Origin: Promethearchaeota archaeon
GTDB taxonomy: Archaea > Asgardarchaeota > Lokiarchaeia > Sigyniarchaeales > SOKP01
Assembly (NCBI GenBank): GCA_048941285.1
Contig: JBHLNS010000004.1
Location: 32,001-96,000, forward strand
Direction: 5' to 3'
DNA length: 64,000 nt
Shown here: piece after piece, positions 2,646-20,341 of the stretch
How positions within the stretch are numbered: position 1 is the stretch's first letter
Layout of the letters: every line of letters begins with the position of its first letter
The notes under the pieces: model-generated
What the model was told of the DNA's origin: nothing
What the model saw: only the letters and a program-made list of their open reading frames with translations
Database searches by the model: none
Position numbers and translations under genes: made by a program

Positions 2646-2786
2646 TTTCTCTACCAAAAACTGTTTCTTGTATGTTTAACTACCATTCTTACTATTCATA
2701 TTTAAACAAAAAATCACCATTCATGATCCTATAAAATTAGAAAAGAAAAAGAAAAGTTAATTAAAACAATGATCTTGGATCATGAT

Positions 2787-4151
2787 TTATATCTTACAAA
2801 TTGGAGGAGGCCCTTTATAATTATAATATTTATATACTTCAAAATCAAATAGGCTATTACACTTGAACTTTGATTTTGATCTCTTATTCTTATTAATATT
2901 AAATTTCAATGGAAAATCATTCATTTTGAGAGTAATAATTAAAGGAGTTCTATTCTCCCCCCGTAAAGCAAAATAATAATAATCAGATTTATCGTAAGTA
3001 TTAAACACTTTAGTAGCATTACCCATGATTAATGTCTCATAATCTTCGGAAGATAAATCTTCTTGATCTTCTTGCTCAGATGCATCAATAAGTCCTAATT
3101 TCTGAATTACTTTCACAAGCAAATCAGACGATTTTATTAAACTGATAAATCCATCTATTTTATACCTCTCAAAAATCTTTTTTTTCACTTGTGATTGGAT
3201 AGTAGACATTCTAATTCCTAATCTATTGCAGATGGCACTTACACTTACATCATTATGTTTTAAACATAACAAAGAAATTGAACTTACTAGTCCAGCTAAT
3301 GCATTATCAGTGGTGTTTTTAATCCCACTCCATAATTTATACATAATTTTTTTAGCTAAATAATAAAATGACATTCCTATGTCAAAATGTTCTGCAATTT
3401 CATAAACTCTGTGAAGAATATACTCTTTTCTATTACGATCAGCATATTGTGGTAAAAATCGTTGAATCTGAAGATTAAAATCCTTGAATTCTTTTTTTGT
3501 AATCTTAGAAACTTCAATTAATTCAAATGGACTAATTGAAACATTTCTAAGTTTGAGACAGAAGTAAATAACTATAGATACTAATTTATCAGTATTTCTG
3601 TATTTTAATCCAGGACGAAGTTTAGTACGAATTTCTTTAAACTTTTCTAAAGCCATCTCTTTTATTGTATCATAGTCAGTTAAATCTAAACAATTTAAAA
3701 TTCTTGAAATTTCAAGACGAGCTTGTTCAATAATGGCCTTTTCATTACTGATTATTGAGTTATGTCTATTTAGTCTATTAAATTCCCCGAAATTAGGAGA
3801 AATTCCTCTTTCTCTCTTGGTTCCTATCTTTGTTATTCCAAGTCCCTTTGCATACTGAATAAGATCCTCATTATAGGGTCTATCATATTGTAATTTCTGG
3901 ATTTCTAATACAATACCACATTCCCGACATACATACCCCTCTGTAGTACTTACAGTTTCTGCTGAACCACAGATATCACATGTAAGATATGAATAATTTA
4001 GGGGTAGCGAACTATTTTGGATTGTTTTATAGGTTGCCAATGTTTTGATCACTATTTTTTTAAATTTATCTAAAGAATATAAGGAAGGAGTTTGCTTTTT
4101 AAACCTTTTCCTCAAAATCTGAACGATGAAAAGAAGGCTTCTTCTCGTCAA
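2787..4151 (-). CDS. Divergent transcription initiation factor IIB (TFB)-like protein
   Basis: Zn ribbon CDICG..YVCRECGIV followed by two cyclin-fold-like repeats (YFCLKLRNVSISPFEL; SISLLCL..VSVSAICNRLGIRMSTI) and a C-terminal extension. True start probably the TTG near 4040. Confidence 0.75.
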   Translation of the reverse strand: MTRRSLLFIVQILRKRFKKQTPSLYSLDKFKKIVIKTLATYKTIQNSSLPLNYSYLTCDICGSAETVSTTEGYVCRECGIVLEIQKLQYDRPYNEDLIQYAKGLGITKIGTKRERGISPNFGEFNRLNRHNSIISNEKAIIEQARLEISRILNCLDLTDYDTIKEMALEKFKEIRTKLRPGLKYRNTDKLVSIVIYFCLKLRNVSISPFELIEVSKITKKEFKDFNLQIQRFLPQYADRNRKEYILHRVYEIAEHFDIGMSFYYLAKKIMYKLWSGIKNTTDNALAGLVSSISLLCLKHNDVSVSAICNRLGIRMSTIQSQVKKKIFERYKIDGFISLIKSSDLLVKVIQKLGLIDASEQEDQEDLSSEDYETLIMGNATKVFNTYDKSDYYYFALRGENRTPLIITLKMNDFPLKFNINKNKRSKSKFKCNSLFDFEVYKYYNYKGPPPICKI

Positions 4152-4509
4152 TTTTAAATAGTGGTTTTTGTGTCATAACAAAAAAGTCATGATTTTTTTG
4201 ATTTTGTTTCGCATTGACATTTTTGTCAATATGCGTAAAGCTATTAATTTTTAATAAATTATGCCAAAATTTAGAAATAGAGATTTGGAAATAATGATTT
4301 ACTTAGATTCTTATATGAATTTAAGAGATGTCTATAGTAACAACTTACCATTTTTAATATCACATGGTTAAGAGTCTACGTTTCATAGCCTCTCGTTCTG
4401 AGTCTATTGTTTTTAATATTTCATGTGATACTTTCTATATTTTAGTCTAATTTAGTATATTTAAATCCAACATTTTTTCCTTTATATTTAAAGGATAGTA
4501 TACTATTTC

Positions 4510-5250
4510 ATGATCGAAGAACCGTTTGTATTTCTCGGTGTTCTAGTCATATCTCTAATTATGTCAAGTTTTATAAAAAGTGATTTATCTGGAATATTAA
4601 AACCAATTGCCCTACGTTTGTGTCTTATTGGAGTTATTTTTCATGAGCTTGCTCATTATTTAATGAGTCTAGTAGTAGGAAAAATGCCAGATAGTTTTAA
4701 TATCAAATGGGAAAGTAAAAAAGATCAGTTTAAAGGTCCTTATGGATGGATTACTCTTGAAAAGCCTCCAAGTTTCCTGCAGACATTTATTATTAGCTTT
4801 GCGCCGCTATATATTAGTACATGGTTAATTTTCCTATTATGGTTTGGGGTTATATTTAATCCATACTTCAATCCTATAGTCAAAACTATTGCAGTGTTTA
4901 TATGCCTTTCCCTATTCTTCACTGCTTCACCATCAAAAGCTGATTTACAATACATTTCTTATTCCTTTAAAAAGGATTCCACCTATTCTTGGTATCAAAT
5001 TTTCTTAATTTGTTTCTCAATAGTAATTTTATGGTTCTTTTTAGTATTCACTCAAATTACACTTTTCTTGGATTTTTTTTATTATTTAGCAATAGCCGTT
5101 ATTTATTTTATGTTAAAATTTTCATTTATCGGATTAAGAAATATAACACTTAAAATTCAATCAAGAAATTTCAAAAAACCCGAAGAAATTAAGTTTAAAA
5201 GATTTTCTCGTCAACATTATAAACCAAAAAAGCCATGGAAAGAAAAATGA
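4510..5250 (+). CDS. Membrane zinc metalloprotease (M50-like, HExxH)
   Basis: HELAH next to a TM segment, FAPL and SPSKAD motifs, several hydrophobic helices. Confidence 0.7.
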   Translation: MIEEPFVFLGVLVISLIMSSFIKSDLSGILKPIALRLCLIGVIFHELAHYLMSLVVGKMPDSFNIKWESKKDQFKGPYGWITLEKPPSFLQTFIISFAPLYISTWLIFLLWFGVIFNPYFNPIVKTIAVFICLSLFFTASPSKADLQYISYSFKKDSTYSWYQIFLICFSIVILWFFLVFTQITLFLDFFYYLAIAVIYFMLKFSFIGLRNITLKIQSRNFKKPEEIKFKRFSRQHYKPKKPWKEK

Positions 5251-5273
5251 TTTAAAAAAAGAGGAAAAAGTAA

Positions 5274-5618
5274 ATGAAAGGGTACTGTTATATTGCGTTA
5301 ATTATTGGATTTTTTATCTTCTATCAGCAAAATCCTATCTATGCCATCGTTATTATCGCATTATTTATTGGGGTATATTTATTTTTCAAATCAAGATCAT
5401 CAGGTTCAAATAGAAGCATATTAGGTTTTTTTAGTGGGAGAAATACGCAACAAGATAATAGAATGGATGATTTAATTACATTAATGATGATACAGCAATT
5501 AATGAATTCATCCTCTCAGAGTAGCGATAATCGAGGAGGAAATGATAAAAAGAAGGAACAAGACGAACAGATTGATAAAATAAAACAAGAAGTTCTCGAA
5601 TTACTTGAAGAAGATTGA
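5274..5618 (+). CDS. Small membrane protein with C-terminal coiled coil
   Basis: Two N-terminal TM segments, polar tail; overlaps the next gene, so operonic. Confidence 0.65.
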   Translation: MKGYCYIALIIGFFIFYQQNPIYAIVIIALFIGVYLFFKSRSSGSNRSILGFFSGRNTQQDNRMDDLITLMMIQQLMNSSSQSSDNRGGNDKKKEQDEQIDKIKQEVLELLEED

Positions 5619-6330
5619 AATGCAAGCAGATTTAGAGTTTTTTGAAGAAATCCGACAGTTATTACATTATCATAACATTGTTTCTATTTCAGGAGAATCT
5701 GGTACGGGAAAGACAACCCTTGCACTTCACTTAATAGGGAATCTATTAACACAGAAAAAACCATATATAGCCTCATGCATATGGATTCAAGCAAGTGAAA
5801 GATTTCCGATCAAACGGTTAACGCAAATTTTTGAAGATACATCTAAAAGATTGGAATATATAAAAAATAATACATATCTTCTACCACAAAAGGGACTAAT
5901 CCATACCTATGAAGAACAAATTTCAAGAATTCGAAAAATAATAGATTTAACATCCAATAACCCACCTTCTCTTAAATATATAGTCATTGATAATATTTCA
6001 CACCATTTACGTTACAAATTAACTCAATTTAATAATCCAAAAGATATTTTACCTATACTAGATGACTTTTACGAGACGCAACTTATGCCACTCATTTTAT
6101 TTTGTAAGCGAAATGAGATATCCTTGATATTAATTCATGAAGTTACTTATATCCCTACACTCCAAAAAATTAGACCCTTCTTTTATAAGTTATATGATAG
6201 AATTAAGACAATTGATATTGTTTTAAGTAAGTTTAATAATAACAAAAAGATGATTCTAGATTTATTTTTTAACGAATTAAAGTGGACTTTTCAATTTAGT
6301 TTAGAGCAAAAAGGTATAATAATGATATAA
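5605..6330 (+). CDS. RadB/Rad51-paralog-like RecA-family ATPase
   Basis: Walker A GESGTGKT, Walker B IVIDN; no N-terminal HhH domain. Confidence 0.75.
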   Translation: MKKIEMQADLEFFEEIRQLLHYHNIVSISGESGTGKTTLALHLIGNLLTQKKPYIASCIWIQASERFPIKRLTQIFEDTSKRLEYIKNNTYLLPQKGLIHTYEEQISRIRKIIDLTSNNPPSLKYIVIDNISHHLRYKLTQFNNPKDILPILDDFYETQLMPLILFCKRNEISLILIHEVTYIPTLQKIRPFFYKLYDRIKTIDIVLSKFNNNKKMILDLFFNELKWTFQFSLEQKGIIMI

Positions 6331-6440
6331 TTTCTAAAGATGATTACAAATTTCTACTAATCCAAATTTCAATAATTTTATTAAATAAATTTTATATAAT
6401 GACTTTTCTTCTTAATCGTTGATAATAAAATATAAATTTA

Positions 6441-6656
6441 ATGATTAATATGAGAAGGGAGGTAATAAAAGGACTTTTAATCGTGGGTATAATTATTTTC
6501 TTAATTATGGGGGTGGTCTTCATAATTGGGTTCTCTATAATAGCCTGAGGTCATATTCTAATTGAATCTCCTATTCCTGCAATTATAAGTTTCTTAGTTG
6601 CTGGAATTTTAATTGCAGTTTATGTAATTTTTTATAGGGAATCTAAAAGAAAATAG
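6441..6656 (+). CDS. Small two-TM protein with one in-frame TGA (6546-6548): candidate selenoprotein, or a nonsense-mutated gene
   Basis: Manual translation MINMRREVIKGLLIVGIIIFLIMGVVFIIGFSIIA-[TGA]-GHILIESPIPAIISFLVAGILIAVYVIFYRESKRK-TAG; SECIS-like hairpin downstream. Confidence 0.55.
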
Positions 6657-6680
6657 AATCTATTTAATATTCAGGTTTAA

Positions 6681-6747
6681 TCCGAGAAAAATGATTCCAA
6701 TAAAAAAATAGTAGTTATTGGATGATAATCCCTGCAAGGGAGTCGGG
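6681..6747 (+). promoter_or_regulatory. SECIS-like kink-turn hairpin in the 3' UTR
   Basis: AUGAU (6691-6695), perfect 8-bp stem UCCAAUAA/UUAUUGGA (6696-6703/6715-6722), A-rich loop AAAAAUAGUAG, 3' UGAU (6723-6726). Possible lower helix UCCGA/UCGGG. Confidence 0.55.
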
Positions 6748-6954
6748 AAAATAAATTAAAGGGTAAATATTTAATATAAATTACTAGTTAATAGAAATAG
6801 TTCATTTAAATTCCGAGAGATATCCTTGAATTTTCCTCTCATTTTTAATAATTCTACATCTAGATTTTGCTTGAAGTAAAATAAAAAAGTAACTAGATAA
6901 ATGTCTCTAACTAACCTAATTTTTCTTTAAATATGCACACTAATTTAATATTTC

Positions 6955-7353
6955 ATGGAAATAAATTCAATCAATACGGAACCTACGCCACATATTATAC
7001 ATGAACTTGTAAAGTGTGGGATTTGCAGAGATGAGATTAAACGAGGAGCCTCGATATATCAGGAAGGGCTTACTTTCGGAGTTGTCTGTGAACATTGCTA
7101 CAAAAATAATTCGCAAGAAGACCTAGAGCTGATGGCAAATATTTTTCTGGCCTATGGAGGTTATTTTGGAAAGTTAAAACAGAAAAAATTTTCTGTATAT
7201 AAGACAATAAAAAAGCTAATGGCGCAATTTCAGCCAGGTAAAGACTTGGATACCTTAATTGAGCTTAACATTAAAATGATGCATCAAGCACTTTTATATG
7301 GGGTTACTCCTCAAGAACTCATTCACGGATTAAAAATTCTTCTAAATGAGTAA
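6955..7353 (+). CDS. Zinc-finger hypothetical protein
   Basis: CGIC...CEHC motif, helical C-terminus. Confidence 0.7.
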   Translation: MEINSINTEPTPHIIHELVKCGICRDEIKRGASIYQEGLTFGVVCEHCYKNNSQEDLELMANIFLAYGGYFGKLKQKKFSVYKTIKKLMAQFQPGKDLDTLIELNIKMMHQALLYGVTPQELIHGLKILLNE

Positions 7354-7488
7354 TTTCTTTTTATTTTCCTCTTTTTCTTATTTTTGATTGAGAGATAGAC
7401 ATAAATACATAATCGAAGATCAATTAGATAAAAATTATTTATTAAAAATGTGAGATTTTTGAAAACCGAAATAATTTTTTTATCCAGA

Positions 7489-7668
7489 ATGACTGAACAA
7501 TTGCTCCACCATAGTGCTATGGAAACTAAAGAAGTTAAAATCAAAAAGAAAGATTTCTTTCAAGAAGCATTGCAATATATTGAACGACATATAAATGCAA
7601 CTGGATTTAAAGTTCTCAATGTTACATCAGCACAAGGAGGAATTGGATATTTTTTAATTAAAGAATAA
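7489..7668 (+). CDS. Small hypothetical protein upstream of radA
   Basis: ORF track 7450-7668; ATG at 7489 is the more plausible start; protein-like composition. Confidence 0.55.
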   Translation: MTEQLLHHSAMETKEVKIKKKDFFQEALQYIERHINATGFKVLNVTSAQGGIGYFLIKE

Positions 7669-7870
7669 TAAAAATTATATCAAATTATATTTTTTTTTCT
7701 AAATGTTATATTCATTTCGATAACGATAGACATAGAAATTTCAATATTTTGGGTTTTTTTTATCTTTGATTTAATTTTTTATTTACTCTTCTTCTCTTTT
7801 TTCTTTAAATAGATTAAATCGATTTGGTATTCAATATAATTACATTAAAAGGAGTTGATAAAAAAGAAGG

Positions 7871-9097
7871 ATGGCAGATTTAGATCAAGTAAAAGCAATC
7901 AATTCCCGTCAGATAAAACTACTCCAAGAAAACGGTATAAGTACTGCAGAAGCATTAGCAATGAGTCCTCACTCTATAGTTGCTTCAATTGATGGTCTTG
8001 GAGAAAAGACCGCAAAAAAGTTAATCTGGAATGCTAGGAATGCATTAGGGATGACCGATTTTACTCCTGCTGCCAAAATAGATGATAATGTTGAATACAT
8101 TACAACAGGGTCCGCTGAATTAAATCGAATTTTAGGTGGTGGGTTTCAAACTGGAAAATTGACTGAGGTATATGGGCCATTTAAATCCGGAAAAACAGCT
8201 TTAGCACATACAATAGCAGTTACAGTTCAATTACCTGAAAAGAAAGGTGGAATTAATAGTGCTGTTGCCTATATTGATACTGAAAATACATTCTCTAAAG
8301 AAAAAATCAAAAGAATAGCTAAACGATTTGAACTGAATCCAAAAGATGTACTTTCAAAGATTTATCACGCAAGGATCTACTCCTCAGATCATCAAGCTCA
8401 AATGATCCAAAAGGCTGAAACACTTTGTAAAACTCGTGGAGTCCGGTTAATTGTCATAGACAGCTTAATGGCTTTACTACGTGCTGAGTATGTAGGAATT
8501 GGTAGATTGGCTCCTCGTCAAGCAGTTTTAAATAATATGATTCATGGCTTATCACGTATAGCAGAGATATATAATTGCGCAGTTTTACTTACTAATCAAG
8601 TAGCTACAAGAATGATGGGTATGTTTTCAGCTGATGATGCTATAGGTGGTAATATCCTAGCTCATGGTTGTCATTTCAGAGTAATGTTTAAAACAAAAGG
8701 ATTCTCTTCTAATAGCTCACTCCAACGGAGGGCTATTATAGTTGACGCACCAGATCTACCACCAGACGAAGCTGAGTTCTATATCACAGGAGTAGGCGTT
8801 GCTGATACCGATAAAGTCGAACTTTCTGAATCTACAGGTTTAGATTTCGAAATTGAAACTCTATATGAAGAAAATGACTCTAAACAAGAAGTTAATGAAT
8901 CTGAAGAAGAGATTTCTCTATTAAATGTGAAAGGTATTGGTAAAGGGACTTTAGAAAATTTAAAGACCCGTGGGATTCTTTCTGTTTCAGATTTAATAGC
9001 AGCAGACCCAGAAGAGCTCTCAGCAAGCATATCGGGAGCTTCGGCAAAGATGGTGAGTGAGTGGCAAACCAATGCTAGAGCACTAATTAATATTTAA
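7871..9097 (+). CDS. radA: DNA repair and recombination protein RadA with additional C-terminal HhH domain
   Basis: N-terminal HhH, FTPA oligomerisation motif, TTGS..L..ILGGG, GPFKSGKT, YIDTENTF, LIVIDS, LTNQV; acidic linker then VKGIGKGT HhH. Confidence 0.88.
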   Translation: MADLDQVKAINSRQIKLLQENGISTAEALAMSPHSIVASIDGLGEKTAKKLIWNARNALGMTDFTPAAKIDDNVEYITTGSAELNRILGGGFQTGKLTEVYGPFKSGKTALAHTIAVTVQLPEKKGGINSAVAYIDTENTFSKEKIKRIAKRFELNPKDVLSKIYHARIYSSDHQAQMIQKAETLCKTRGVRLIVIDSLMALLRAEYVGIGRLAPRQAVLNNMIHGLSRIAEIYNCAVLLTNQVATRMMGMFSADDAIGGNILAHGCHFRVMFKTKGFSSNSSLQRRAIIVDAPDLPPDEAEFYITGVGVADTDKVELSESTGLDFEIETLYEENDSKQEVNESEEEISLLNVKGIGKGTLENLKTRGILSVSDLIAADPEELSASISGASAKMVSEWQTNARALINI

Positions 9098-9292
9098 ATA
9101 CTTGTTTTTTTATTCTTTTAACTTTTTTTTATGCAATTATTTAATTTTCAAACCATAAATCTTGACTTAGATATGCATATTATTTTTAATCCTATAACTT
9201 CAAATTTTAATATTAAATAATCAACACCCTTAAGATTTGAACTATTTTTCTTTTAAATAAGATAAAAGAAGAATTTAATGTGATAAAAAAGA

Positions 9293-9796
9293 ATGGGAAC
9301 TTTAACTAAAGATGAAGTTAATGCTTTACCAACTCGATTTGATAAAGTGGCTTATAGTACTTTTTTCAAACTGTGGTATGCCTTGCAGAAAGCGCTTCCT
9401 GCTGAGAAGAAGGATGAAATTTTGACAAAGATTGGGCGAACTATTGGAAAAGAATTCAATGAAGAAGGCATTGAGACGCTTGAAGATTTTTTAAGACGAT
9501 TAAGGGAATTTTTAGAACAGGAATGGGCAATTACCGACAATGCAAAAGTAGATATAAAAATGGATGAGGAAGGAAATGCAACAAAAATTCTTGCTTACCA
9601 AGACAGTTGTAAAATGTGTTTTGCCAATACATATTACAGGTACCATGATTACGGAAGCCCTTCTTGCATGTTCCCACAAGTTATGATGGGAATCTTATCA
9701 AAGGTTAAAAATAAGTTTGGGTTTAGAAATCTACGATTTGAGGGGGTTGAAAAAGGCGGAGTTGGTGAATGTGCGATGCAGTGGAATGTTAGATAA
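9293..9796 (+). CDS. V4R-like small-molecule-binding domain protein
   Basis: IGRTIGKEF helix, CxxC...C..GIL...C pattern typical of the V4R fold. Confidence 0.55.
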   Translation: MGTLTKDEVNALPTRFDKVAYSTFFKLWYALQKALPAEKKDEILTKIGRTIGKEFNEEGIETLEDFLRRLREFLEQEWAITDNAKVDIKMDEEGNATKILAYQDSCKMCFANTYYRYHDYGSPSCMFPQVMMGILSKVKNKFGFRNLRFEGVEKGGVGECAMQWNVR

Positions 9797-9833
9797 AAAT
9801 TAATTTTACTAATAGAAGATTGGTTAAATAAGG

Positions 9834-10229
9834 TTATATCCATTCAATTTGTTTGTATTTATTTATTCCAATTTTTAATATATCTTCAATTTCCTTTAAG
9901 AGTTGGGGTGTAGTTTTATTTATATTAAAACAAGACTTTCCTTTCAAAAATTTTTTAAGATCTGAGCTGATTTTTGTGAATAAATCTGGGTGGGAATAAA
10001 TAGGTGAGAAATAAAGACTAACATAGTTCTTTTGTTTTATTACACCAGCAATATATGTCGGTTGTGGTTTCTTTCCGAATAAGCTAACTTCTTTATTTCC
10101 ATACATATGATAAGCTGGTTTTTGTTGTTTGGCTTGGGATCCGATATAATGGTTTTTTATTAGAAAGTTGCTGGAGTTTTTTTCCAGGATTTTTTTTATC
10201 TCTAAAAAGATATTTTCTAGTTTCTCCAT
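9834..10229 (-). CDS. DUF1801/YdhG-like protein
   Basis: KNYVSLYF..IY and LKGKSCFNI motifs. Confidence 0.6.
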   Translation of the reverse strand: MEKLENIFLEIKKILEKNSSNFLIKNHYIGSQAKQQKPAYHMYGNKEVSLFGKKPQPTYIAGVIKQKNYVSLYFSPIYSHPDLFTKISSDLKKFLKGKSCFNINKTTPQLLKEIEDILKIGINKYKQIEWI

Positions 10230-10313
10230 ATTAAAAAAGATTTAAGAATATAATTTAACTATTTGACTTTTATTTTATTTGGATTTGATATAAAAAATAT
10301 ATAGAATGAAAAA

Positions 10314-11318
10314 TTAAATTCCTGTGGTATTTTTCTTTTTCCGGGATACGATGATTAGCACAGGAATACTTACAGCACTTCCTACAAATACTATCATACC
10401 TATTGTCCATTCAGTGGGAATTAATATGTCTATTCCTTCATTTGTATTGTTTCCTGGAACATCTGGAGGTGGATCTTCATCATTCGGATCATTATCATCA
10501 GCAATCCGATGTCTCTCAACGACTGCGAAAGCAATGTTAACATTCGGAACTTGGCAATAAATCGTAATATTCATGATGTAAAGACCCTCTACACTAGTAC
10601 CAAATCGATATACTAAGATTCCAAGAGACTCATTTCTATAAATTTTGTATGGTATTCCTATAGAACTCACTATATCATGTGCTATTACAACAAAATTGCT
10701 AAGCTTTATTGAGATGGGAGAAACTCTCTGAAAATAAAATTTGTAATACCAATTGCTTTTTAGTGTTGTATTAAAAACAATATTTGTTTCATTTTTAAAT
10801 TTTCTCACATCATAATAGTTTATCTTTTGTTGTTCATCACTGGGCATAATATCATAAAGACATTTGATCCCTTGTTCAATTTTAATATGTATATTAAGAT
10901 TCTCAGTAAGGATTGCCTTGAATATAATGGTATAATTCCCTGTGAGAGCTGTTCCAAATGGGGTGGTTCTGTAATCATCTTGTATCATGTTTGTCTCATA
11001 TGTAATTTCATAGGGATCATCTTCAGGATCAATTATTGTTATATTCATATCGCATATATGAGGTGTCACGACACCGACAATGATGTCATAATAAAAAGGT
11101 TTCTCGAAGAAAATAATTTCATTGAATATAAGAATTGGGTCTTCCACTGTGAAATTATATACTTTATCAGTAAGAATATCACCAATAGAACTGGTATGAA
11201 GTTCACTAATTTCACTTAATTTTCTTGAATTATTGAGAAAGTTGGGAAAAACTATTGAAATACCAGAGAATAATAAAATCAAGGAAAATAAAATTACTTT
11301 AGACCGCTTAATATCCAT
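10314..11318 (-). CDS. Secreted protein with C-terminal membrane anchor
   Basis: N-terminal signal/TM, beta-rich body, D/P-rich linker, C-terminal TM followed by RKKK. Confidence 0.7.
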   Translation of the reverse strand: MDIKRSKVILFSLILLFSGISIVFPNFLNNSRKLSEISELHTSSIGDILTDKVYNFTVEDPILIFNEIIFFEKPFYYDIIVGVVTPHICDMNITIIDPEDDPYEITYETNMIQDDYRTTPFGTALTGNYTIIFKAILTENLNIHIKIEQGIKCLYDIMPSDEQQKINYYDVRKFKNETNIVFNTTLKSNWYYKFYFQRVSPISIKLSNFVVIAHDIVSSIGIPYKIYRNESLGILVYRFGTSVEGLYIMNITIYCQVPNVNIAFAVVERHRIADDNDPNDEDPPPDVPGNNTNEGIDILIPTEWTIGMIVFVGSAVSIPVLIIVSRKKKNTTGI

Positions 11319-11625
11319 ACACCTTTAGTTCAGTAAATTCAGAAATTAATTCTTTTACCCTTTTACATTTATCGTAAGAAACGCAGTTAAAACATGGCTG
11401 ATCAGTCCAAAAATATGCCTTATGGTCTTTCTTATCAATAATCAAGATCGGGAATCTGCTTCTAGGGCAAGTTAGGGCAGAATTACTAATAGCACCCCGT
11501 TTTGGTAAAGCATATGATACTCCACAGATCTCGCATTTTGCATATCGCTTATAATTTTGAGTTTTAAAAATAGAAATCGTACAATCACAATTTGGGCAAA
11601 TCCCAATCTCATCTATTTTTCGCAT
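11308..11625 (-). CDS. Multi-zinc-ribbon protein
   Basis: CPNC, CEIC, CP and CFNC..C motifs; overlaps the downstream gene. Confidence 0.7.
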   Translation of the reverse strand: MRKIDEIGICPNCDCTISIFKTQNYKRYAKCEICGVSYALPKRGAISNSALTCPRSRFPILIIDKKDHKAYFWTDQPCFNCVSYDKCKRVKELISEFTELKVYGY

Positions 11626-11740
11626 ATCAATTATTAAATGTGTATAATAGTTTGAATAGAACTAAATCATGTTTATTTAAAGAAAAAAAATCTCATCCGG
11701 ATTTTTTGTTTATAAAGATCAAATAATAATATTTGATAGT

Positions 11741-11959
11741 ATGTTATTCGATTATTTTGATGGTATTGCAGAAGCGATAGAGTTCCTAGTGGCATTAGGC
11801 TCAATAATCGGAATGCTTGGACTAATTGTGGGAATAATTGGTTGGCTGTTTTTGGGGCAATTCCAGCGTCATAGGATGATAGGCGTCATTATAGTATCTA
11901 TTATCTTGTTGGCCATATGTGGGATCCATACAGGAATTAGATACTTTCGGATATACTGA
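11741..11959 (+). CDS. Small two-TM membrane protein
   Basis: 72 aa, two hydrophobic Gly-rich helices. Confidence 0.65.
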   Translation: MLFDYFDGIAEAIEFLVALGSIIGMLGLIVGIIGWLFLGQFQRHRMIGVIIVSIILLAICGIHTGIRYFRIY

Positions 11960-12492
11960 TATTCTTTTGACCATCAAGAAATTAAGCAGATACCTTTTAT
12001 ATTCCGGATTATTTATGAAAGAATAACTATTTTTCCTTTTCTTTTTAAGAGGGTATATAGAAAGTCTAGTACAAATCATTAACAATTCCAAGCAAGAGAT
12101 AATTAAAAAAGATGTTCGAATAATTTATTTCGTTGTAAAGAAGTAGATCAAAATATTTGACAACCAGATCACCTTCACTAAAAGACCTATGAATTTTAAA
12201 CCAAGGAATAAAAAAAGAAAATAGAATGTATAAATATCCAAAATTATTGGAAATTGTTAAATATATATGATGGCATATTTTTTTATTTTTCTCCATAAAA
12301 AATCTTCTCTAGTATCAATTTATTGGTTATTGAAGTATATCTCTTAATTTAGACCAATTTTTTGTATACCTTAATTCACTTTTCTTCATAAAAATAGATT
12401 TTTTTGACGCTTATTAAGATTTTTTTGTTCAAACTTTTGAACACATATTTAGAGGTATAATTATTTATACTAACATTGATATTTTACCTATA

Positions 12493-12963
12493 ATGAAATC
12501 AAAACTGCAATTGGTGATTCCCCTGCTATTAATTGGGGTTTTTACATTAATACCTAGTATTTTAATTAATATTGAGGGTATTGCTGATAAATCTATTAAT
12601 TTTGAAACAATTGCACAAGGATGGAATTCAGATTATACAACTCATGAATATATAGTTATAGACTCTCAAGTATTATGGGTAAAAATTTGGGATCAAACGT
12701 TTTCATCAATTCAACCTCAACCAGAAACACCCTATATTGATTTTACACAAAACAGTGTAATCGCTGTATTTTCCGGTTTTAAGCCAACGGGGGGTTATTC
12801 CATAAATATCACAAAAATTAGAGTAAAGATAACTTCTGTTTATGTATATGTTGAAAATATTTCCCCTCCTCCAGAAGTAGAAGTTCCTGCTGTAATAACA
12901 TTTCCATATCATATAATAAAAACACAAAAACTCTTTCTAAATATTATTTTTCAACGTATTTAA
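12493..12963 (+). CDS. PrcB C-terminal domain family secreted protein
   Basis: Signal peptide; IDF..SVIAVFSGFKPTGGYSINI and VITFPYHII motifs. Confidence 0.75.
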   Translation: MKSKLQLVIPLLLIGVFTLIPSILINIEGIADKSINFETIAQGWNSDYTTHEYIVIDSQVLWVKIWDQTFSSIQPQPETPYIDFTQNSVIAVFSGFKPTGGYSINITKIRVKITSVYVYVENISPPPEVEVPAVITFPYHIIKTQKLFLNIIFQRI

Positions 12964-13064
12964 TTTAATTAAAAAGAAAACAGTGTAGATATTATGATAT
13001 GAAGCGAATTTTGTTTATTAAGCTTGAAATGATATTAAAAATCAATATAAGAATTAAAAATTAT

Positions 13065-13556
13065 TCACGTTTTTAACAATAAATGATATCCACTTCCACC
13101 TGAAGAAGTAGAATCGCCTATTAATATTCCAAAGAAATCCAAAACTGATCCTGTACACCAGCAACCAATCCATAACAGTGCTACTCCGATAATAACATTT
13201 CTTGCCCAGTGTAGACTTCTTGTAAATATTCCTACAAAACCCACTAGCATAAGAATTCCACCAATCATTATAGAAAAGGTTCCTATTCCATCAATAAGTA
13301 TTGAAAAAAGCCCACCAATTTGAAATCTCCAATTCAACCCAAAAATTGGAAAAAAGATGAATACAAATAATAAGATACAGAAGAATATTGCTACAATCCA
13401 CCTCGATTGTTCGTATTTTGGCTTTACAATATATCTTGTGTCATAAGAATGTTTTTTTGAAATTTTAAGAACACCTTTTTTTATTGATATCCTTTTTGAA
13501 ACTGAAGTTGAGTATATATAAAGGAAAAAGTGTATACAATAATAGCTCATTTTCAT
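13065..13556 (-). CDS. Three-TM membrane protein
   Basis: Three hydrophobic segments; true start probably downstream of the called one. Confidence 0.6.
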   Translation of the reverse strand: MKMSYYCIHFFLYIYSTSVSKRISIKKGVLKISKKHSYDTRYIVKPKYEQSRWIVAIFFCILLFVFIFFPIFGLNWRFQIGGLFSILIDGIGTFSIMIGGILMLVGFVGIFTRSLHWARNVIIGVALLWIGCWCTGSVLDFFGILIGDSTSSGGSGYHLLLKT

Positions 13557-13663
13557 TTAAAAAGAATTGATTAAATGAAAGCAATAAATCAGATGGTGAA
13601 ATAAAAATTCCCATTAAATTTCCAATAATCTTAATTTTTTACATAGATGATGATAGTTTTATA

Positions 13664-13975
13664 TTGCCAGTTTTCATATTATTAGTTATTACATATCTAT
13701 TCATGATTTTTAATCCAAATATGCCTTCAGAATTTCGCTGTCCTAATTGCCAATCCGATGAGTTTATTGACTATGGAGAGCTTATTGAATGCGTTCAATG
13801 TGGTTTTGAATTTTTCAAAGAAGTCTTAGACCATGATATTGAAGAGGAAAATATTTTGTCTGATCAAGAATTAGAAAGTCTGGCAGAAACATTTCAAGGA
13901 GAATTTAAAGAAGAAAAGGATCGCGAAAGATTCTTAAAATCAATTGATGATGATCTCAGAGATCTTCAGGACTAG
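13664..13975 (+). CDS. Zinc-ribbon protein with acidic tail
   Basis: CPNC...CVQCG; likely start at MPSEF (13720). Confidence 0.65.
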   Translation: MPVFILLVITYLFMIFNPNMPSEFRCPNCQSDEFIDYGELIECVQCGFEFFKEVLDHDIEEENILSDQELESLAETFQGEFKEEKDRERFLKSIDDDLRDLQD

Positions 13976-14103
13976 ATTAGCTTTACTATTTAATTAAATA
14001 ATCTTTATTCAAATAACAATATCGATTTTTTCAATTAATTATCTTTAATCTGGTTTTATCATGTTTTTTTCTTTTTATACAACTATTTTATAATTGATAA
14101 GAT

Positions 14104-15198
14104 ATGGGTGTTAAATTACAGAATCTTATTTTAAGAAAGGTTATTGAATTTCAAGATTTAAATGGGAAGATTGCGGCAATTGATGCTCCAAACATAATTA
14201 TGGGATTATTTAATTTTGCTGTGAAGAATCAAGATAATCTAAAAACAGGATTAATATTAGATCGAACACAACGACCAATTTCTCATCTATATGGTCTTCT
14301 GTATCGAGTTAATTTCTTTTACTCAAAGAATATTTTCCCGGTATTTTGCTTTGATGGAAAGGTTTCAGAACTTAAAAAAATAATAACAAAAGATCAATTA
14401 CGGGATTTCATATTTACTCAGAACTGGTATAATGAGGCATTGAGAACTGGGAATAAAATCTTAGCTAGAGATATAGCACTAAGTAAGGAATATATGTGGC
14501 AGAACATTATCAAAGAATCAAAACAACTTATTGGTGCGTTAGGTGTTCCCTATATAGAATCTCCCGCATCAGCAGAATCTCAATGTGCCTATTTAGTGAA
14601 AAGAGGATTGGTTGATTATTCTAATTCACAAGATTTTGATTCTCTCTTATTTGGATGTCCCTTATTAATCCAAAATCTTTCAAAATCATTAAGAAGGAAA
14701 ATTCAAGGAAAGTGGCATTATCATAAGATACAACCCGTTGTTATTGATCTACAAAAGAATTTAAAAAATTTAGGTATTTCAATATTTCAATTAGTTGATA
14801 TTGGAATATTAATAGGTACAGATTATTTTCCTGGTGTAGGTGGTATTGGATCAAAAAAAGCATTGAGTCTTGTTAGAAAATACAAATCTCTTGAAAAAAT
14901 TATTCTAAAAGAGTATAATAAGTATGATTTTGGTCAATTAAACCCAGATCTTATTAAAAAAGTAAGAAAAATCTTTTTATTCCCTAATGTTAAAGGAAGA
15001 ATTGATAACCTTTTGTGGAATCCCCCTAATAAAACAAGAATAAATTCATTATTGTGTGAAGAACATCATTTAAATAAAAGCCGTGTAGAAAAAAATCTTG
15101 AACAATTTGAATTGAATTATAAGAAATGTAGAAATTATTTCATACAATATAAAAAACAACCAAAAAGACTCCAAGTTACATTAGATAATATCCCATAA
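14104..15198 (+). CDS. fen: Flap endonuclease 1 (FEN1/XPG family), divergent
   Basis: MGV start, AIDA, FCFDG, SAESQCAYL, SQDFDSLLFG, GTDYFPGVGGIG; degenerate PIP box QVTLDNIP. Confidence 0.85.
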   Translation: MGVKLQNLILRKVIEFQDLNGKIAAIDAPNIIMGLFNFAVKNQDNLKTGLILDRTQRPISHLYGLLYRVNFFYSKNIFPVFCFDGKVSELKKIITKDQLRDFIFTQNWYNEALRTGNKILARDIALSKEYMWQNIIKESKQLIGALGVPYIESPASAESQCAYLVKRGLVDYSNSQDFDSLLFGCPLLIQNLSKSLRRKIQGKWHYHKIQPVVIDLQKNLKNLGISIFQLVDIGILIGTDYFPGVGGIGSKKALSLVRKYKSLEKIILKEYNKYDFGQLNPDLIKKVRKIFLFPNVKGRIDNLLWNPPNKTRINSLLCEEHHLNKSRVEKNLEQFELNYKKCRNYFIQYKKQPKRLQVTLDNIP

Positions 15199-15220
15199 TT
15201 TTTCCTTTAAATGTAAAATC

Positions 15221-15913
15221 TTGACAACGCTAACTCCTTTTTTTTATTTAAATAATCTCATAATTATCATAATAATAAGATTCAGCTTTAGCATCGAGGA
15301 AATCATGACTCAGACACTAAAAAAGGAAATATTTGATACAGATAATATAAGTGATTACTATAAAAAGTATTATAAGTCTCAAAATAAATTTAAACCGATT
15401 GTGTTAAACTATGTATTCCGAAATATCTCTTTTATTACAAAAAAGGAAAAAATTCGAACCATTACTCACTCTGAGTATAAAGAAATAAGTATCTGTTTAA
15501 ATATCCCTATTATGCTTATTCACAAGGTAATCAGTGAATATTTAATTAACTTGTTAAGGTTCAAAAAATTTCTCAATAAAAATCCAAATTTACTTCATAT
15601 TAAAGAACAGAAACACTTTATTAATATTCTTATTCATAGATTCTATCGACTAGCTCCTGTTTTTGACTATAAAAGGGCAAAACAAAATGCAAAAATCCTT
15701 CAAATAAAATTAAATAAATTGTTTTTCTGGCCACAATTAATGACTCAATTAGCAATTATAATATTCGTAACTGATTTATTCGATAAGCAAAATTCTCAAA
15801 AAATAATTCAATCTAATTTAAGAGCTTTATGTAGTTGTTCTGCTTATGCATTTCATAGAACCAGAAATAAGCTGGGTTTAACCTCGAAATTTGCCAAAAG
15901 CTTAACAGCATAG
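15221..15913 (+). CDS. Protein with a TFB C-terminal cyclin/HTH-like repeat
   Basis: QLAIIIFV..IIQSNLRALCSCSAYAFHRTRNKL resembles the last TFB repeat; likely start MTQTL (~15305). Confidence 0.45.
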   Translation: MTTLTPFFYLNNLIIIIIIRFSFSIEEIMTQTLKKEIFDTDNISDYYKKYYKSQNKFKPIVLNYVFRNISFITKKEKIRTITHSEYKEISICLNIPIMLIHKVISEYLINLLRFKKFLNKNPNLLHIKEQKHFINILIHRFYRLAPVFDYKRAKQNAKILQIKLNKLFFWPQLMTQLAIIIFVTDLFDKQNSQKIIQSNLRALCSCSAYAFHRTRNKLGLTSKFAKSLTA

Positions 15914-15945
15914 TTTATGAATAACAAAGAATAATTTGAAAGAAA

Positions 15946-16893
15946 ATGTTAGAAAGAGCTGAAGAGATCTATCAAGCTTTATTAGATGGAGGGATAAGTG
16001 AAGAGGAACTTATCCAGCAAATTAAGGAAAAAACAAATGAATTTCAAGGTTTTATGACCAAGCAAGCAATATTATATCTTATTGCAAAAGAAAATGGAAT
16101 TAATGTGGATTCCTCTGATAATGTGGAAATGGTTAATCACATTACTGAGGATATTATTGATTATAATGAGTTTTCTGTTCCAATCTCATCTATTGTTGAA
16201 AACATAAATAACATTGTCATTGCAGGGAGAGTGGAGAGGATTTACACAATTAGAGATTTTATAAAGAAAGATGGCACTCCCGGACGTATAGGGTCATTTC
16301 AAATTTGTGATGCTTCTGAATGCATTAAAATCATTCTATGGAATGAGAATGTTGAAATTATGGAAAATGACCTTTTCAAGAAGGGCGAAATAATTCAATT
16401 AGTTGGGGGTTATTCTAAAAAAAATAGTGATGGGAAGTTAGAAGTCCATTTAAGTAGGCAGGGGACTATTATTTTGGCTCCAGAAACCGTACTTATATCT
16501 GAAAATCTAAAACCTAATTTTGTGAAAAACAAATCCATTGAAATATCCGACAACACTAAACAAGAAAATTTGGATATAAAATCTCAATTATCTATTCAAA
16601 ACCTTCATAATAAGGATGGATACATTAGGTTTATTTCAGGGATAGTAAATGTTGAATTTTTTAAGGAATTCTCTCTAAAAAATGGTGAGAAATCATTTCT
16701 GTTAAAGTTACAACTTTCAGATGGTTCTGCGTCAATAAAAGTGAATATTTGGGGTTTAAAGGCAGTAGAGTGTATAAAGTTAATTACCAATGGAGATAAG
16801 GTCAAGTTTTTTAATGTAGTTATTAAGGAAAATTCATATACAAATGATAAAGAACTTAATTTTACGAGAAATTCTACCCTTAGTGTTCTATAA
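15946..16893 (+). CDS. Replication protein A-like ssDNA-binding protein (two OB folds)
   Basis: N-terminal LYLIAKENGI helix domain; OB folds F.KKDG..G....I.D.S..IKIILWN and LSDGSASIKVNIWG. Confidence 0.85.
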   Translation: MLERAEEIYQALLDGGISEEELIQQIKEKTNEFQGFMTKQAILYLIAKENGINVDSSDNVEMVNHITEDIIDYNEFSVPISSIVENINNIVIAGRVERIYTIRDFIKKDGTPGRIGSFQICDASECIKIILWNENVEIMENDLFKKGEIIQLVGGYSKKNSDGKLEVHLSRQGTIILAPETVLISENLKPNFVKNKSIEISDNTKQENLDIKSQLSIQNLHNKDGYIRFISGIVNVEFFKEFSLKNGEKSFLLKLQLSDGSASIKVNIWGLKAVECIKLITNGDKVKFFNVVIKENSYTNDKELNFTRNSTLSVL

Positions 16894-18924: not shown

Positions 18925-19067
18925 TAAAAAATATTCCCTAGACTCAATAGGTGCTTTCTATATAAATATTTTTTCAAATTATACACCCAAATCTAATTTG
19001 AATATTGAGAGATCTACTTTAAATTCCTGATGACCCTTATACTAATTTTTTCTTTATATATTCTGCA

Positions 19068-19661
19068 TTGAATTTTCATCAAAAATTAAAATATAGAAAA
19101 AAAGGAAAAAAAATGATAACTCACATACCAAAAGTTTTATACCAAAATAAAATAACAGAAGTGTTGGATGATATTAGATATAACTATGGCAAATTAACAC
19201 GAAAAGGGTATATCTACGGTTTAATAGCAATAGATCAAGATGCAAAAATAATAGCAATAGATTCCAGATTCGACAGAAAGTTAAACTATTGGGACTTAAG
19301 CTCAATAGGAGCTGCATTATATGGAGTTGCTAGGCAAGGTCAAGATTTTTTCGAAACAGAATCCTTAGAAAGAGCTACTCTGATTTATAGTGATATGCGG
19401 TTATTTGTCAAATCCATAGGTAACATAGAGCTTCAAAAGAAAGGAAAGCGAGATATTCTTATCGTTCTATTAACCGATAACGAGGTAAATTTAGGAGTAA
19501 TGATCCTTCAGATGAGTAAGTTTGCGCAGAAAATTAAAGAAGAAATTGAAAAAAATGATCATATGAAAAATGTCTTAAAAATGCCTGAGAAAGATATCAA
19601 AGAGCATATCAAAGAATTAAAGAAACAGATGTTTAAAGATAAAATTGGTACAATATCCTAA
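19068..19661 (+). CDS. Roadblock/LC7 (MglB-like) protein
   Basis: LSSIGAALYG and VNLGVMILQM roadblock patterns; directly upstream of an MglA-like GTPase. Confidence 0.75.
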   Translation: MNFHQKLKYRKKGKKMITHIPKVLYQNKITEVLDDIRYNYGKLTRKGYIYGLIAIDQDAKIIAIDSRFDRKLNYWDLSSIGAALYGVARQGQDFFETESLERATLIYSDMRLFVKSIGNIELQKKGKRDILIVLLTDNEVNLGVMILQMSKFAQKIKEEIEKNDHMKNVLKMPEKDIKEHIKELKKQMFKDKIGTIS

Positions 19662-19666
19662 GATTC

Positions 19667-20341
19667 TTGAGCTCAGGTGATTATATGGAATTAGAGCATA
19701 GAAATTTAGGAAAAGTAAAAGTAGAAGTAAGTGAAGATTTTGATTTCAATGATTCAGAAAATATGATTCAATTTAAGATTGTTTATTGGGGTCCCGGTGA
19801 AAGTGGTAAAACTACAAATTTTTTTAGATTACGTGAAAAATTTGATTTGATTAAATTAACTCGGGGGTATTCTATAGAAACCACCGAAGGTCGGACTCTC
19901 TGGGAAGATTCCTTATATTTACTCTTCAAATTTACACTACATAATATTAAATTCAATATAATATGTCATGTAGTGACATGTACTGGACAGGAGAGATTCC
20001 TTTCCACACGAGAGTATGTTTTAGATGGAGCTGATGGGATAATGTTTATAGGAGATTCTGAACCCGATAAAATCGAGCAAAATAAAAGAAGTTTTCGAGA
20101 ACTGGTAAGTTTTGCTAAACCAAAGAATATCCCATACTTAATTCAGTTAAATAAACGGGATTTAGGAAACGCTATTTCTATTAAAGATTTTAAACTTAAT
20201 TTAGGTCTACCCCTCCAAGAATCATACCCAGATGGTTCTTTAGTTGTATATCCTTCAGAAGCCCTCCAAGGTAAAAATATAATTGAAAGTTTCAGAGATT
20301 TAATGCTCCAAGTAATTTTTAAATATTTTAAGGAAGAATGA
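19667..20341 (+). CDS. MglA-like small GTPase
   Basis: KIVYWGPGESGKTTN, GRTL, TCTGQ, VLDGADG, NKRD. Confidence 0.85.
   Translation: MSSGDYMELEHRNLGKVKVEVSEDFDFNDSENMIQFKIVYWGPGESGKTTNFFRLREKFDLIKLTRGYSIETTEGRTLWEDSLYLLFKFTLHNIKFNIICHVVTCTGQERFLSTREYVLDGADGIMFIGDSEPDKIEQNKRSFRELVSFAKPKNIPYLIQLNKRDLGNAISIKDFKLNLGLPLQESYPDGSLVVYPSEALQGKNIIESFRDLMLQVIFKYFKEE

Follow-up and report, generated by a model that had tools for sequence, protein, structure and literature searches.

In Sulfolobales, a TFB3-dependent DNA-damage regulon comprises the Ups pili and the Ced DNA-import system. TFB3, a truncated TFB, has no DNA-binding cyclin core and works in concert with TFB1. The available part of a recent preprint describes the cell-cycle regulon of Sulfolobus TFB2 as having near-identical TATA boxes and similar B recognition elements (BREs) with different spacing, and it also cites TFB expansions in haloarchaea (bioRxiv 10.64898/2026.09.06.749720). 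The subject of this work is a gene island in a Loki-type Asgard archaeon (Promethearchaeota archaeon, order Sigyniarchaeales; assembly GCA_048941285.1), where a divergent TFB-like gene lies beside additional copies of recombination genes. The island occupies positions 2787-16893 of a 64,000-nucleotide stretch, called the window throughout (contig JBHLNS010000004.1, positions 32,001 to 96,000; G000:C36:32001-96000 in our labelling), which has about 30% G+C throughout. We propose, with a probability of roughly 55%, that this island is the core of a vertically inherited regulon, about 37 kb long and jointly controlled, that encodes spare recombination proteins and is probably turned on by the island TFB.

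Eukaryotes possess a meiosis-specific set of paralogues that comprises DMC1, HFM1/Mer3, MEIOB, EXO1 and FANCM. In animals and archaea, HELQ/Hel308 binds physically to RPA, RAD51/RadA and RAD51 paralogues, according to the available text of one report (PMC13623763). Two RadA clades occur in some Asgard archaea; the accessible portion of the paper that reports them gives no gene context and places the Rad51/DMC1 split after the divergence from the sampled Asgard RadA (PMC12722695). The accessible portion of PMC12993045 contains nothing on the cluster described here, and no description of the cluster or of its promoter box was found in the literature searched (supplements excluded).

What does the island contain? 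The original prediction, made from the letters of the sequence, had listed a divergent TFB, a membrane protease, a RadB-like ATPase, RadA, FEN1, a second TFB-repeat protein, RPA, three small zinc-finger proteins and several small membrane or secreted proteins. The listing of open reading frames (ORFs), a Pfam scan and the translations of the window place every named gene where it had been put. The genes that carry the argument are as follows (HhH, helix-hairpin-helix; OB, oligonucleotide/oligosaccharide-binding).

2787..4151, minus strand: divergent, predicted TFIIB-family protein, 454 aa, with a zinc ribbon, two cyclin repeats and a C-terminal extension of about 100 aa
4510..5250, plus strand: polytopic membrane protein, 246 aa, with HELAH and a conserved PSxxD
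5605..6330, plus strand: RecA-fold P-loop ATPase, 241 aa, Walker A GESGTGKT, RadB/Sak4-like core
7871..9097, plus strand: RadA paralogue, 408 aa, with an N-terminal HhH, a RecA core (Walker A GPFKSGKT, LIVIDS) and an extra C-terminal HhH
14104..15198, plus strand: FEN1 paralogue, 364 aa, with XPG_N and XPG_I domains (XPG_I 84.2 bits)
15305..15913, plus strand: o230, a helical protein of 202 aa whose true start is at 15305 (M29 of the ORF) and whose C-terminal half resembles a cyclin box
15946..16893, plus strand: short RPA paralogue, 315 aa, with an N-terminal DUF2240-like domain and two OB folds

The TFB-like gene and the HExxH gene stand head-to-head and are divergently transcribed. The HExxH gene shares an operon with the genes of a 114-aa two-helix protein (sm114) and of the ATPase, and FEN1, o230 and RPA make up another operon. 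The three zinc-finger proteins are CxxC...CxxC proteins at 6955, 11308 (minus strand) and 13664. The unit is larger than the island itself. It begins about 18 kb upstream of the window start and ends about 3 kb past 16893, so that the regulon as a whole spans C36:13.8-51 kb, or window positions -18,140 to 19,060. Its recombination content consists of a Hel308 with a zinc insert, a Hef-type helicase, the RecA-fold, mediator-like ATPase, the RadA with two HhH domains, and the FEN1 and short RPA paralogues. Its membrane content consists of the M50-like HExxH protein, several tiny two-helix proteins and a neighbouring complex encoded by five genes.

The feature that joins these genes is a rare promoter box, TTTTYCTTTWWATW (TTTT[CT]CTTT[AT][AT]AT[AT]), in which a T-run plus C abuts the TATA box. 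It stands before six operons of the island, and a further copy in the window precedes an operon beyond the island.

4475..4488, plus strand: box TTTTCCTTTATATT, 21 nt before the start codon of the HExxH operon
6920..6933, plus strand: box TTTTTCTTTAAATA, 21 nt before the zinc-ribbon gene Zn_132
7798..7811, plus strand: box TTTTTCTTTAAATA, 59 nt before RadA
11674..11687, minus strand: box TTTTTCTTTAAATA, 48 nt before the CxxC-protein gene Zn_105
13515..13528, minus strand: box TTTTCCTTTATATA, inside the longest ORF reading of the membrane-protein gene tm163
14066..14079, plus strand: box TTTTTCTTTTTATA, 24 nt before FEN
from 19047, plus strand: box TTTTTCTTTATATA, before an operon of a 197-aa protein and an Arf-like GTPase

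Because the fifth box lies inside the longest reading of tm163, the true start of that gene is probably later. The place next to the TATA box is the position of the BRE, which is contacted by TFB.

Seven boxes lie in the window, none of them beyond its first 19.1 kb; dinucleotide-preserving shuffles give 0.52, and none of 100 shuffles reaches seven. On both strands of the 3.55-Mb genome the box occurs 92 times, 13 of them in C36:13.8-51 kb. Since the pattern was derived from the six island operons, the fair test lies outside them; seven more boxes are found in the flanks where 0.67 are expected (p 6.6e-6). Six of these seven precede genes on the same strand: the five-gene membrane operon, an operon of an 80-aa protein and Hel308, a 79-aa gene, an operon of a 208-aa protein, Hef and DUF1922, the gene of a 351-aa protein, and the operon of the 197-aa protein and the Arf-like GTPase. 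The seventh, at C36:16521 on the plus strand and 15,480 bases before the window start, is not followed by an ORF and is directed antisense into the end of the membrane-complex operon. Intergenic boxes at most 200 nt upstream of a same-strand gene start number 24 genome-wide, and 11 of them fall in these 37 kb. The combination is specific as well: among 1184 TATA-like sites in front of ORFs of at least 100 aa, just 10 have TTTTYC before them.

The box is conserved among relatives. Seven loci of the same genus carry 5-9 boxes per 20 kb (0.52 expected), and the distance from box to start codon is kept: 22 nt for the HExxH gene (13 in one locus), 22 for Zn_132, 55-61 for RadA and 46-50 for Zn_105 (3 in L037). 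When 60 instances are aligned, the sequences on either side are at background composition, apart from an enrichment of A at 21-22 nt beyond the box, which would be expected at a start site. The frequency of the box also follows the TFB-like gene. We write f1 for the family of the source genome, g1 for its genus and f2 for a second family of the same order. In f1 genomes with the TFB-like gene the box outnumbers its reversed control by 961 to 643, and the figures are 182 to 164 in f1 genomes without it, likewise ignoring kinship. The excess per genome is 1.3, 5.8 and 12.3 for zero, one and at least two TFB-like copies (14, 34 and 7 genomes; rho 0.41, ignoring kinship). Boxes were found near six of the seven extra TFB-like copies examined, with 15 boxes in L136-L142 against 0 for the reversed control. 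The shared rare box before operons of the island and its flanks, including those of Hel308, Hef and the membrane complex, is new here. It strengthens the earlier view of the island as a dedicated module with paralogous machinery, which is supported.

Are the island genes the housekeeping copies? They are not: better-scoring radA, fen, rpa and tfb genes exist elsewhere in the genome, and none of the island radA, fen, rpa and tfb genes is the sole copy. Further copies of Hel308 and Hef are also present in the source genome. The island RadA matches Rad51 (PF08423) with 233.5 bits and has two HHH_5 stretches (HHH_5 60.5 bits). The additional HhH that had been noticed at its C-terminus is present and is 33% identical to the N-terminal one (E 1e-4). 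In a genome scan the RadA copies on contigs C68 and C70 score 319.8 and 298.7 bits and the island copy 235.1 bits; the latter is 43% and 39% identical to the C68 and C70 proteins, respectively. These two are 65% identical to each other and 50-59% identical to RadA of other Asgard families. The island FEN is 34% identical to a 348-aa FEN on C26. Its PCNA-interacting (PIP) box, QVTLDNIP, keeps the Q and L of QxxLxxFF and has lost the aromatic pair, where the housekeeping FEN reads QVSLDDFF. The short RPA corresponds to the N-terminal half of a 574-aa RPA on C34 and is without the C-terminal zinc OB domain Rep_fac-A_C, which the C34 copy has (47.5 bits).

Phylogenetic trees place both the RadA and the FEN paralogues in long-branched clades of their own, and the recombination set as a whole appears from its sequences to be fast-evolved. 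In a tree of 70 RadA sequences rooted on RadB-like proteins, the island type forms one clade (support 100 in the Shimodaira-Hasegawa-like approximate likelihood ratio test, SH-aLRT) with a stem of 1.35 changes per site. This clade contains sequences of f1, f2 and a further family, f4, and does not group with the canonical RadA of related genomes; its exact sister is unsure because long branches meet. The FEN tree separates the linked FENs of f1 and f2 from the FENs of 348-349 aa by a branch with a support of 100.

Island-type RadA is present in 13 of 24 genomes of the same genus, with one more fragment at a contig end. Among 200 genomes of the phylum it is found in 27 of 40 in f1, 1 of 3 in f2 and 0 of 157 in 25 other families. 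The regulon is found in one order of Loki-type Asgard archaea. The apparent absences in G003 and G024 are contig breaks inside the island. Contigs end in or next to the island unusually often (G003, G024, G141, G191, G199, G224), and for this reason counts of presence and absence from draft genomes are unreliable here. Some observations on other RadA genes may be added. The canonical pair of the source genome (C68:91612-92871 and C70:7908-8882) are duplicates, both present in most of the same-genus genomes searched, and the C68 type is longer at the N-terminus by about 100 residues. Further divergent RadA-like genes exist in some genomes (G023:C7, G008:C82, G012:C16). Second copies of the island type in G166:C256 (L068) and G210:C226 (L069) contain one or two in-frame TGA codons.

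The linkage of these genes is conserved within and beyond the genus. The seven same-genus loci that were fetched around the RadA paralogue all share the gene order, and their proteins are 38-90% identical. The two conditions that the original prediction had named as refuting it, sole housekeeping copies and an order not conserved in relatives, are both ruled out. This contig carries the Hel308 with a Cys/His insert at 4.6-7.2 kb before the window start, and the Hef-type helicase lies just upstream of the window; a similar Hef-type helicase is found in the G037 locus. Two f2 genomes, G038 and G035, encode in one direction a gene resembling the small membrane-protein gene sm114, the RadA paralogue, a small protein, the ATPase and a Hel308-type helicase of 840-854 aa (L038 4553-10957 and L040 4446-10165), with the FEN paralogue 3-5 kb away. 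The sm114-like gene is identified by a hidden Markov model (HMM) match in L038 and by position only in L040. Over 831 aa the G038 helicase shows 36% identity to the Hel308 of this contig; it shares the Cys/His insert of that Hel308 and is its full-length counterpart. There are two FENs each in G038, G036 and G035. One FEN accompanies a 102-residue remnant of island-type RadA in G032, and in G037 (80% complete) the RadA paralogue is present and only one FEN was found. In nine f1 genomes from other genera, the TFB-like gene and the island RadA are within 3-15 kb of each other. G038 has a distant homologue about 8 kb away from its FEN paralogue, and in G202 and G237 the TFB-like gene is beside the gene of a 1278-aa membrane protein. 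It occurs in 23 of 27 RadA-positive and 7 of 13 RadA-negative f1 genomes (p 0.05, ignoring kinship).

Two genes of the Ldh_2 (malate/L-lactate dehydrogenase) family bracket the box-bearing cluster, at L031 10490-11614 on C36 and at window 23512-24651; in G001 the downstream Ldh_2 gene follows less than 2 kb after RPA. The pair was considered as a fresh target duplication and rejected, since at only 68% identity the two are old paralogues.

How good is the case that the protein at 2787-4151 belongs to the TFIIB family? Its matches lie below the Pfam cut-offs: 19.4 bits to Zn_Ribbon_TF (cut-off 29), and 19.3 bits in the window scan and 22.2 in the genome scan to TFIIB (PF00382, gathering score 23.6). 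The likely true start is at about 4052 (MIK... in orthologues), and the ribbon cysteines C58, C61, C75 and C78 are invariant in 11 orthologues. The AlphaFold model has a mean confidence (predicted local distance difference test, pLDDT) of 56.6, with residues 136-330 at 65-89. A Foldseek search of this model against the PDB returned TFIIB, Brf or TFB chains at all of ranks 1-32 (best E 4.4e-6), and superposition on 1d3u_B gives a template-modelling score (TMt) of 0.67 and a root-mean-square deviation of 4.5 over 200 columns. By contrast, a profile of 11 sequences searched against PDB sequences found no TFB and only a ribosomal zinc ribbon (E 0.68). A database search yielded 291 relatives. Among the best 120 of these 291, those with a named source come from Loki-type or Promethearchaeota assemblies, and some are named 'TFIIB-type zinc ribbon-containing protein'. 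Taken with the model, these results indicate a TFIIB-family member that falls below the Pfam cut-off. Its own promoter is ordinary-looking and is without the box. A genome scan finds nine ordinary TFB genes with two repeats elsewhere.

In G202 (L136-L139) the TFB-like gene stands alone in a unit of about 1.5 kb that is present in four copies at 90-95% DNA identity, and two of the four also share 5.5 kb that hold the 1278-aa membrane-protein gene. At about 11000-15100 of L139, a CRISPR array (repeat of about 37 nt starting ATTTCAATCTTCTATTTGAAGC) with Csm6-HEPN and Cas_APE2256 lies about 1 kb from a TFB-like copy.

The protein o230, which had been taken for a second TFB-repeat protein, is a partial case. 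A cyclin box is seen by VIA structure matching, with Z 10.3 to Brf1, 9.5-9.6 to TFIIB and 8-9 to cyclins, the nearest structures being Brf1, TFIIB and Orc6 (9.3-10.3). Its neighbour clusters in language-model features have PF00382 in 12-52% of their members, and the nearest include viral TFIIB-like proteins. On the other side, Foldseek gave nothing at E<=0.001 and only matches at E>0.5, hhalign against the TFB-like family gave a probability of 0.2%, and the best match of its profile to PDB sequences has an E of 0.38.

The HELAH of the 4510-5250 protein sits in a hydrophobic stretch, and the HExxH motif is kept in 12 of 12 true members of the family, with PSxxD in most. The window's own protein has no Pfam match. 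In an alignment of 14 sequences, which includes two non-homologues, five match Peptidase_M50B at E<=0.1, three have weak M50 matches and two have zincin matches; the L042 sequence alone passes the Peptidase_M50B cut-off (28.4 against 26). The protein is a candidate intramembrane metalloprotease of the M50 clan. G037 is the only f2 locus with a HExxH homologue; the first genes of the G038 and G035 RadA operons were considered as homologues and rejected by alignment. The ATPase at 5605-6330 was originally called RadB-like. This is plausible from its weak matches, which comprise the KaiC-type 'ATPase' family of Pfam (20.8 bits, below the cut-off of 26.6), UvsX-like (E 2e-5) and Sak4-like (E 5e-5) proteins in PHROGs, and RadA in comparison with the family HMM (E 2e-5 to 5e-4); an identity with RadB itself did not emerge. 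The upstream membrane operon of five genes begins with an HhH membrane protein and carries the box. The neighbouring 1278-aa membrane protein, whose operon is a box-bearing one, has no Pfam match and no sequence match in the PDB (best E 0.076), and a proposed likeness to VirB4 was not reproduced by sequence search. The functions raised in the original prediction, competence or DNA transfer between cells and a trigger by intramembrane proteolysis, are conjectural, and the one lead towards transfer is this box-bearing operon.

The paralogy, the conserved linkage, the shared box and the conserved spacing from box to start codon underlie the regulon that we propose. Every operon would begin with TTTTTYC abutting a TATA box, at the BRE position that is read by TFB. 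The divergent TFB of the island, which is predicted to retain the zinc ribbon that docks RNA polymerase and both cyclin repeats, may recognise this variant BRE, orient the pre-initiation complex and turn on the whole set together in the manner of a sigma factor. The short RPA would coat single-stranded DNA, the ATPase and the RadA paralogue would make a strand-exchange filament, Hel308 and Hef would remodel branched intermediates and the FEN paralogue would trim flaps. These roles are those suggested by the protein families, and the cluster may be inducible. A stronger version, in which the divergent TFB and the T-run-plus-C BRE form a sigma-factor-like switch for a complete recombination apparatus, a VirB4-like membrane complex and a membrane-anchored DNA-binding protein, is doubtful.

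Several observations weigh against the regulon. The box pattern was derived by eye from six island upstream regions, and the other 13 of the 24 well-placed boxes precede unrelated metabolic or signalling genes. Of 14 loci from f1 genera other than g1, only 4 have a strict box before RadA, and the others show variants judged by eye. The f2 and f4 loci have 0-1 strict boxes, no convincing shared motif was seen by eye in f2 promoters, and in f2 genomes the box is not in excess (100 boxes, with 175 for the reversed control). G202 and 7 of the 13 RadA-negative f1 genomes have the TFB-like gene but no island RadA, and the gene was not found in 4 of 27 RadA-positive ones. The models of the TFB-like protein and o230 have low confidence (pLDDT 56.6 and 64.7). 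The f1 FEN paralogues keep six of seven acidic metal ligands, by the numbering that we assume for FEN1, and the first E of E-x-E is replaced. Decay is also seen: the split island of the one-contig genome G006 has lost RadA and the ATPase and has a truncated RPA, and G003 retains no more of FEN than its 3' third. The island is dispensable. Finally, the evidence for the TFB-like protein as the reader of the box is circumstantial; the nine ordinary TFBs, o230 or an island zinc-ribbon protein could read it.

This last point leads to the most serious alternative, which is possible and clearly weaker than the regulon under its own TFB. In it, the co-regulated spare set is real, and the box is read by an ordinary TFB or another DNA-binding protein of the island; the TFB-like protein would be, for example, a repressor, a decoy, or a factor for the neighbouring membrane complex only. 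Nine canonical TFB genes are available, the TFB-like gene is present in genomes without island RadA and adjoins the 1278-aa membrane-protein gene in G202 and G237, and the specific factor could be o230, which is another TFIIB-like cyclin-box protein. However, the box abuts the TATA box exactly at the TFB contact site, the TFB-like protein keeps its ribbon cysteines and both cyclin repeats, the box excess rises with the number of TFB-like copies, and boxes lie near six of the seven extra copies (15 against 0 for the reversed control). Could the genes be chance neighbours, and the box a common strong promoter of an A+T-rich genome? T-runs and TATA-like words are frequent at about 30% G+C, and the 13 well-placed boxes before unrelated genes fit such a view. 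It is nevertheless the least probable of the explanations, disfavoured by the shuffle and genome-rate controls (7 against 0.52, and 7 flank boxes where 0.67 are expected), by the rarity of T-run plus C at TATA-like upstream sites (10 of 1184), and by the order and box spacing conserved in seven genomes whose proteins are 38-90% identical.

Two further explanations concern the origin and purpose of the set. It is unlikely that the island is what remains of an integrated mobile element or virus, whose replication-recombination module, reminiscent of T4 UvsX, gp32 and RNase H, was captured by the chromosome together with a transcription factor. The long branches of RadA and FEN, the patchy presence (13 full copies and one fragment in 24 same-genus genomes), the many contigs of metagenome-assembled genomes that end inside the island, the four TFB-like copies (90-95% DNA identity) beside CRISPR and defence-type genes in G202, and the viral TFIIB-like proteins in clusters nearest o230 all agree with it. 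Yet the earlier remark that neither integrase nor capsid gene was seen holds in the Pfam and PHROGs scans, which likewise lack a transposase, a terminase, a replication initiator or another virus hallmark. No tRNA gene was found, there are no direct repeats of at least 15 nt at candidate borders except the coding similarity of the two Ldh_2 genes, the G+C of the island equals that of its flanks, the flanking genes are syntenic across the genus, and RadA and FEN of f1 form their own sub-clade apart from other families, as vertical descent predicts. An anti-virus defence system, with a Hachiman-like Ski2 helicase and nuclease partners, is very unlikely. The zinc-insert Hel308 does match the PADLOC HamB models (best E 1e-47), and TFB-like copies in G202 lie near AAA_15/AAA_21, NACHT, Csm6 and a CRISPR array. 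The HamB match is expected for any Hel308 if, as we assume, HamB and Hel308 are one helicase family; moreover, no other island protein rises above noise in the PADLOC defence models, no HamA-type domain (presumably DUF1837) appears in Pfam scans of the neighbourhood, and the remaining genes are bona fide recombination families.

The other genes of the cluster are given below in order.

3..2657, minus strand: 3' part of the gene of a 974-aa protein, a prenyltransferase-like alpha-alpha toroid (Pfam Prenyltrans 57.5 bits)
5274..5618, plus strand: sm114, 114 aa, two N-terminal membrane helices and a charged tail
6955..7353, plus strand: Zn_132, zinc-ribbon protein, 132 aa
9293..10229: two genes without an assigned family, 167 aa (plus strand) and 131 aa (minus strand), present only in some orthologous loci
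10314..11625, minus strand: operon of Zn_105 (two CxxC pairs) followed by o334
11741..11959, plus strand: two-helix membrane protein, 72 aa
13065..13556, minus strand: membrane protein tm163, at most 163 aa
13664..13975, plus strand: zinc-ribbon protein, 103 aa, with an acidic tail
19047..20341, plus strand: 197-aa protein without an assigned family, then the Arf-like GTPase, in a box-led operon, the outermost box-bearing operon on this side

The toroid-protein gene adjoins the TFB-like gene in eight loci (L033, L034, L037, L044, L046, L048, L050 and L140). The gene of sm114 comes after the HExxH gene in those fetched same-genus loci that hold both, and its homologues lie beside the RadA paralogue in L038 and L039. 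The Atlas clusters nearest to Zn_132 are all archaeal, most commonly from Promethearchaeota, and none has a common Pfam family. The 334-aa protein o334 has an N-terminal signal or anchor helix and a C-terminal membrane helix. Neither PrcB_156 (12493-12963) nor a trypsin-like protein (16980-18266) has a counterpart among the related loci fetched. Small GTPase genes of the Arf/Ras family are seen at the cluster edge both in the window (19667-20341) and in G038 (L038 3351-3842). A 71-codon ORF for a two-helix membrane protein, at 6441-6656 on the plus strand, has one in-frame TGA between the helices (…IIA-TGA-GHIL…). Its paralogues in G007 (L044 14270-14479 and 12791-12979) have TGA at the same aligned site and conservation beyond it, and the ORF is a candidate small selenoprotein.

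TFB paralogues with regulons of their own are already known. In this cluster the factor, its probable DNA element and all the targets can be read from the sequence alone, so that promoter-specific initiation in Asgard archaea can be put to a direct test. What is targeted is an entire second set of recombination proteins, and this set is conserved across an order. Why should these organisms keep a recombination pathway under separate control beside membrane machinery? The answer matters for gene exchange in the lineage that gave rise to eukaryotes.

How does the cluster compare with the systems described at the outset? Like the meiotic set, it contains a specialised second recombinase, a Ski2/Hel308-type helicase, an RPA-like OB protein, an XPG-family nuclease and a Hef/FANCM-type helicase. 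This is an analogy only, and the island RadA is not the ancestor of DMC1, because the RadA paralogue is found in one order only. As in some of the Asgard archaea treated in the accessible portion of PMC12722695, there is more than one full-length RadA, and the genome studied here has three full-length RadA genes. The four kinds of protein that meet as HELQ/Hel308 and its partners are encoded together here, and f2 has the genes of helicase, ATPase and RadA paralogue strung together in one direction. Unlike that set, the cluster consists of extra divergent copies, with a Cys/His insert in the helicase and a second HhH in RadA, and the comparison is drawn from genes alone. The TFB3 regulon also ties a TFB paralogue to genes of DNA exchange and repair, with membrane proteins and an ATPase-like membrane component nearby. 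However, no pilus genes were seen in this cluster and the families are not orthologous. In addition, the TFB-like protein is predicted to keep the ribbon and both cyclin repeats and to add a C-terminal domain, and the genes form one contiguous cluster with its own BRE-like box and with RadA, FEN, RPA, Hel308 and Hef paralogues. With the TFB2 regulon it would share the principle of a TFIIB paralogue that directs RNA polymerase to a defined gene set. Compared with the available description of TFB2 promoters, it is here the element adjacent to the TATA box that itself differs, being a T-run plus C, and the gene of the factor lies in one cluster with its targets.

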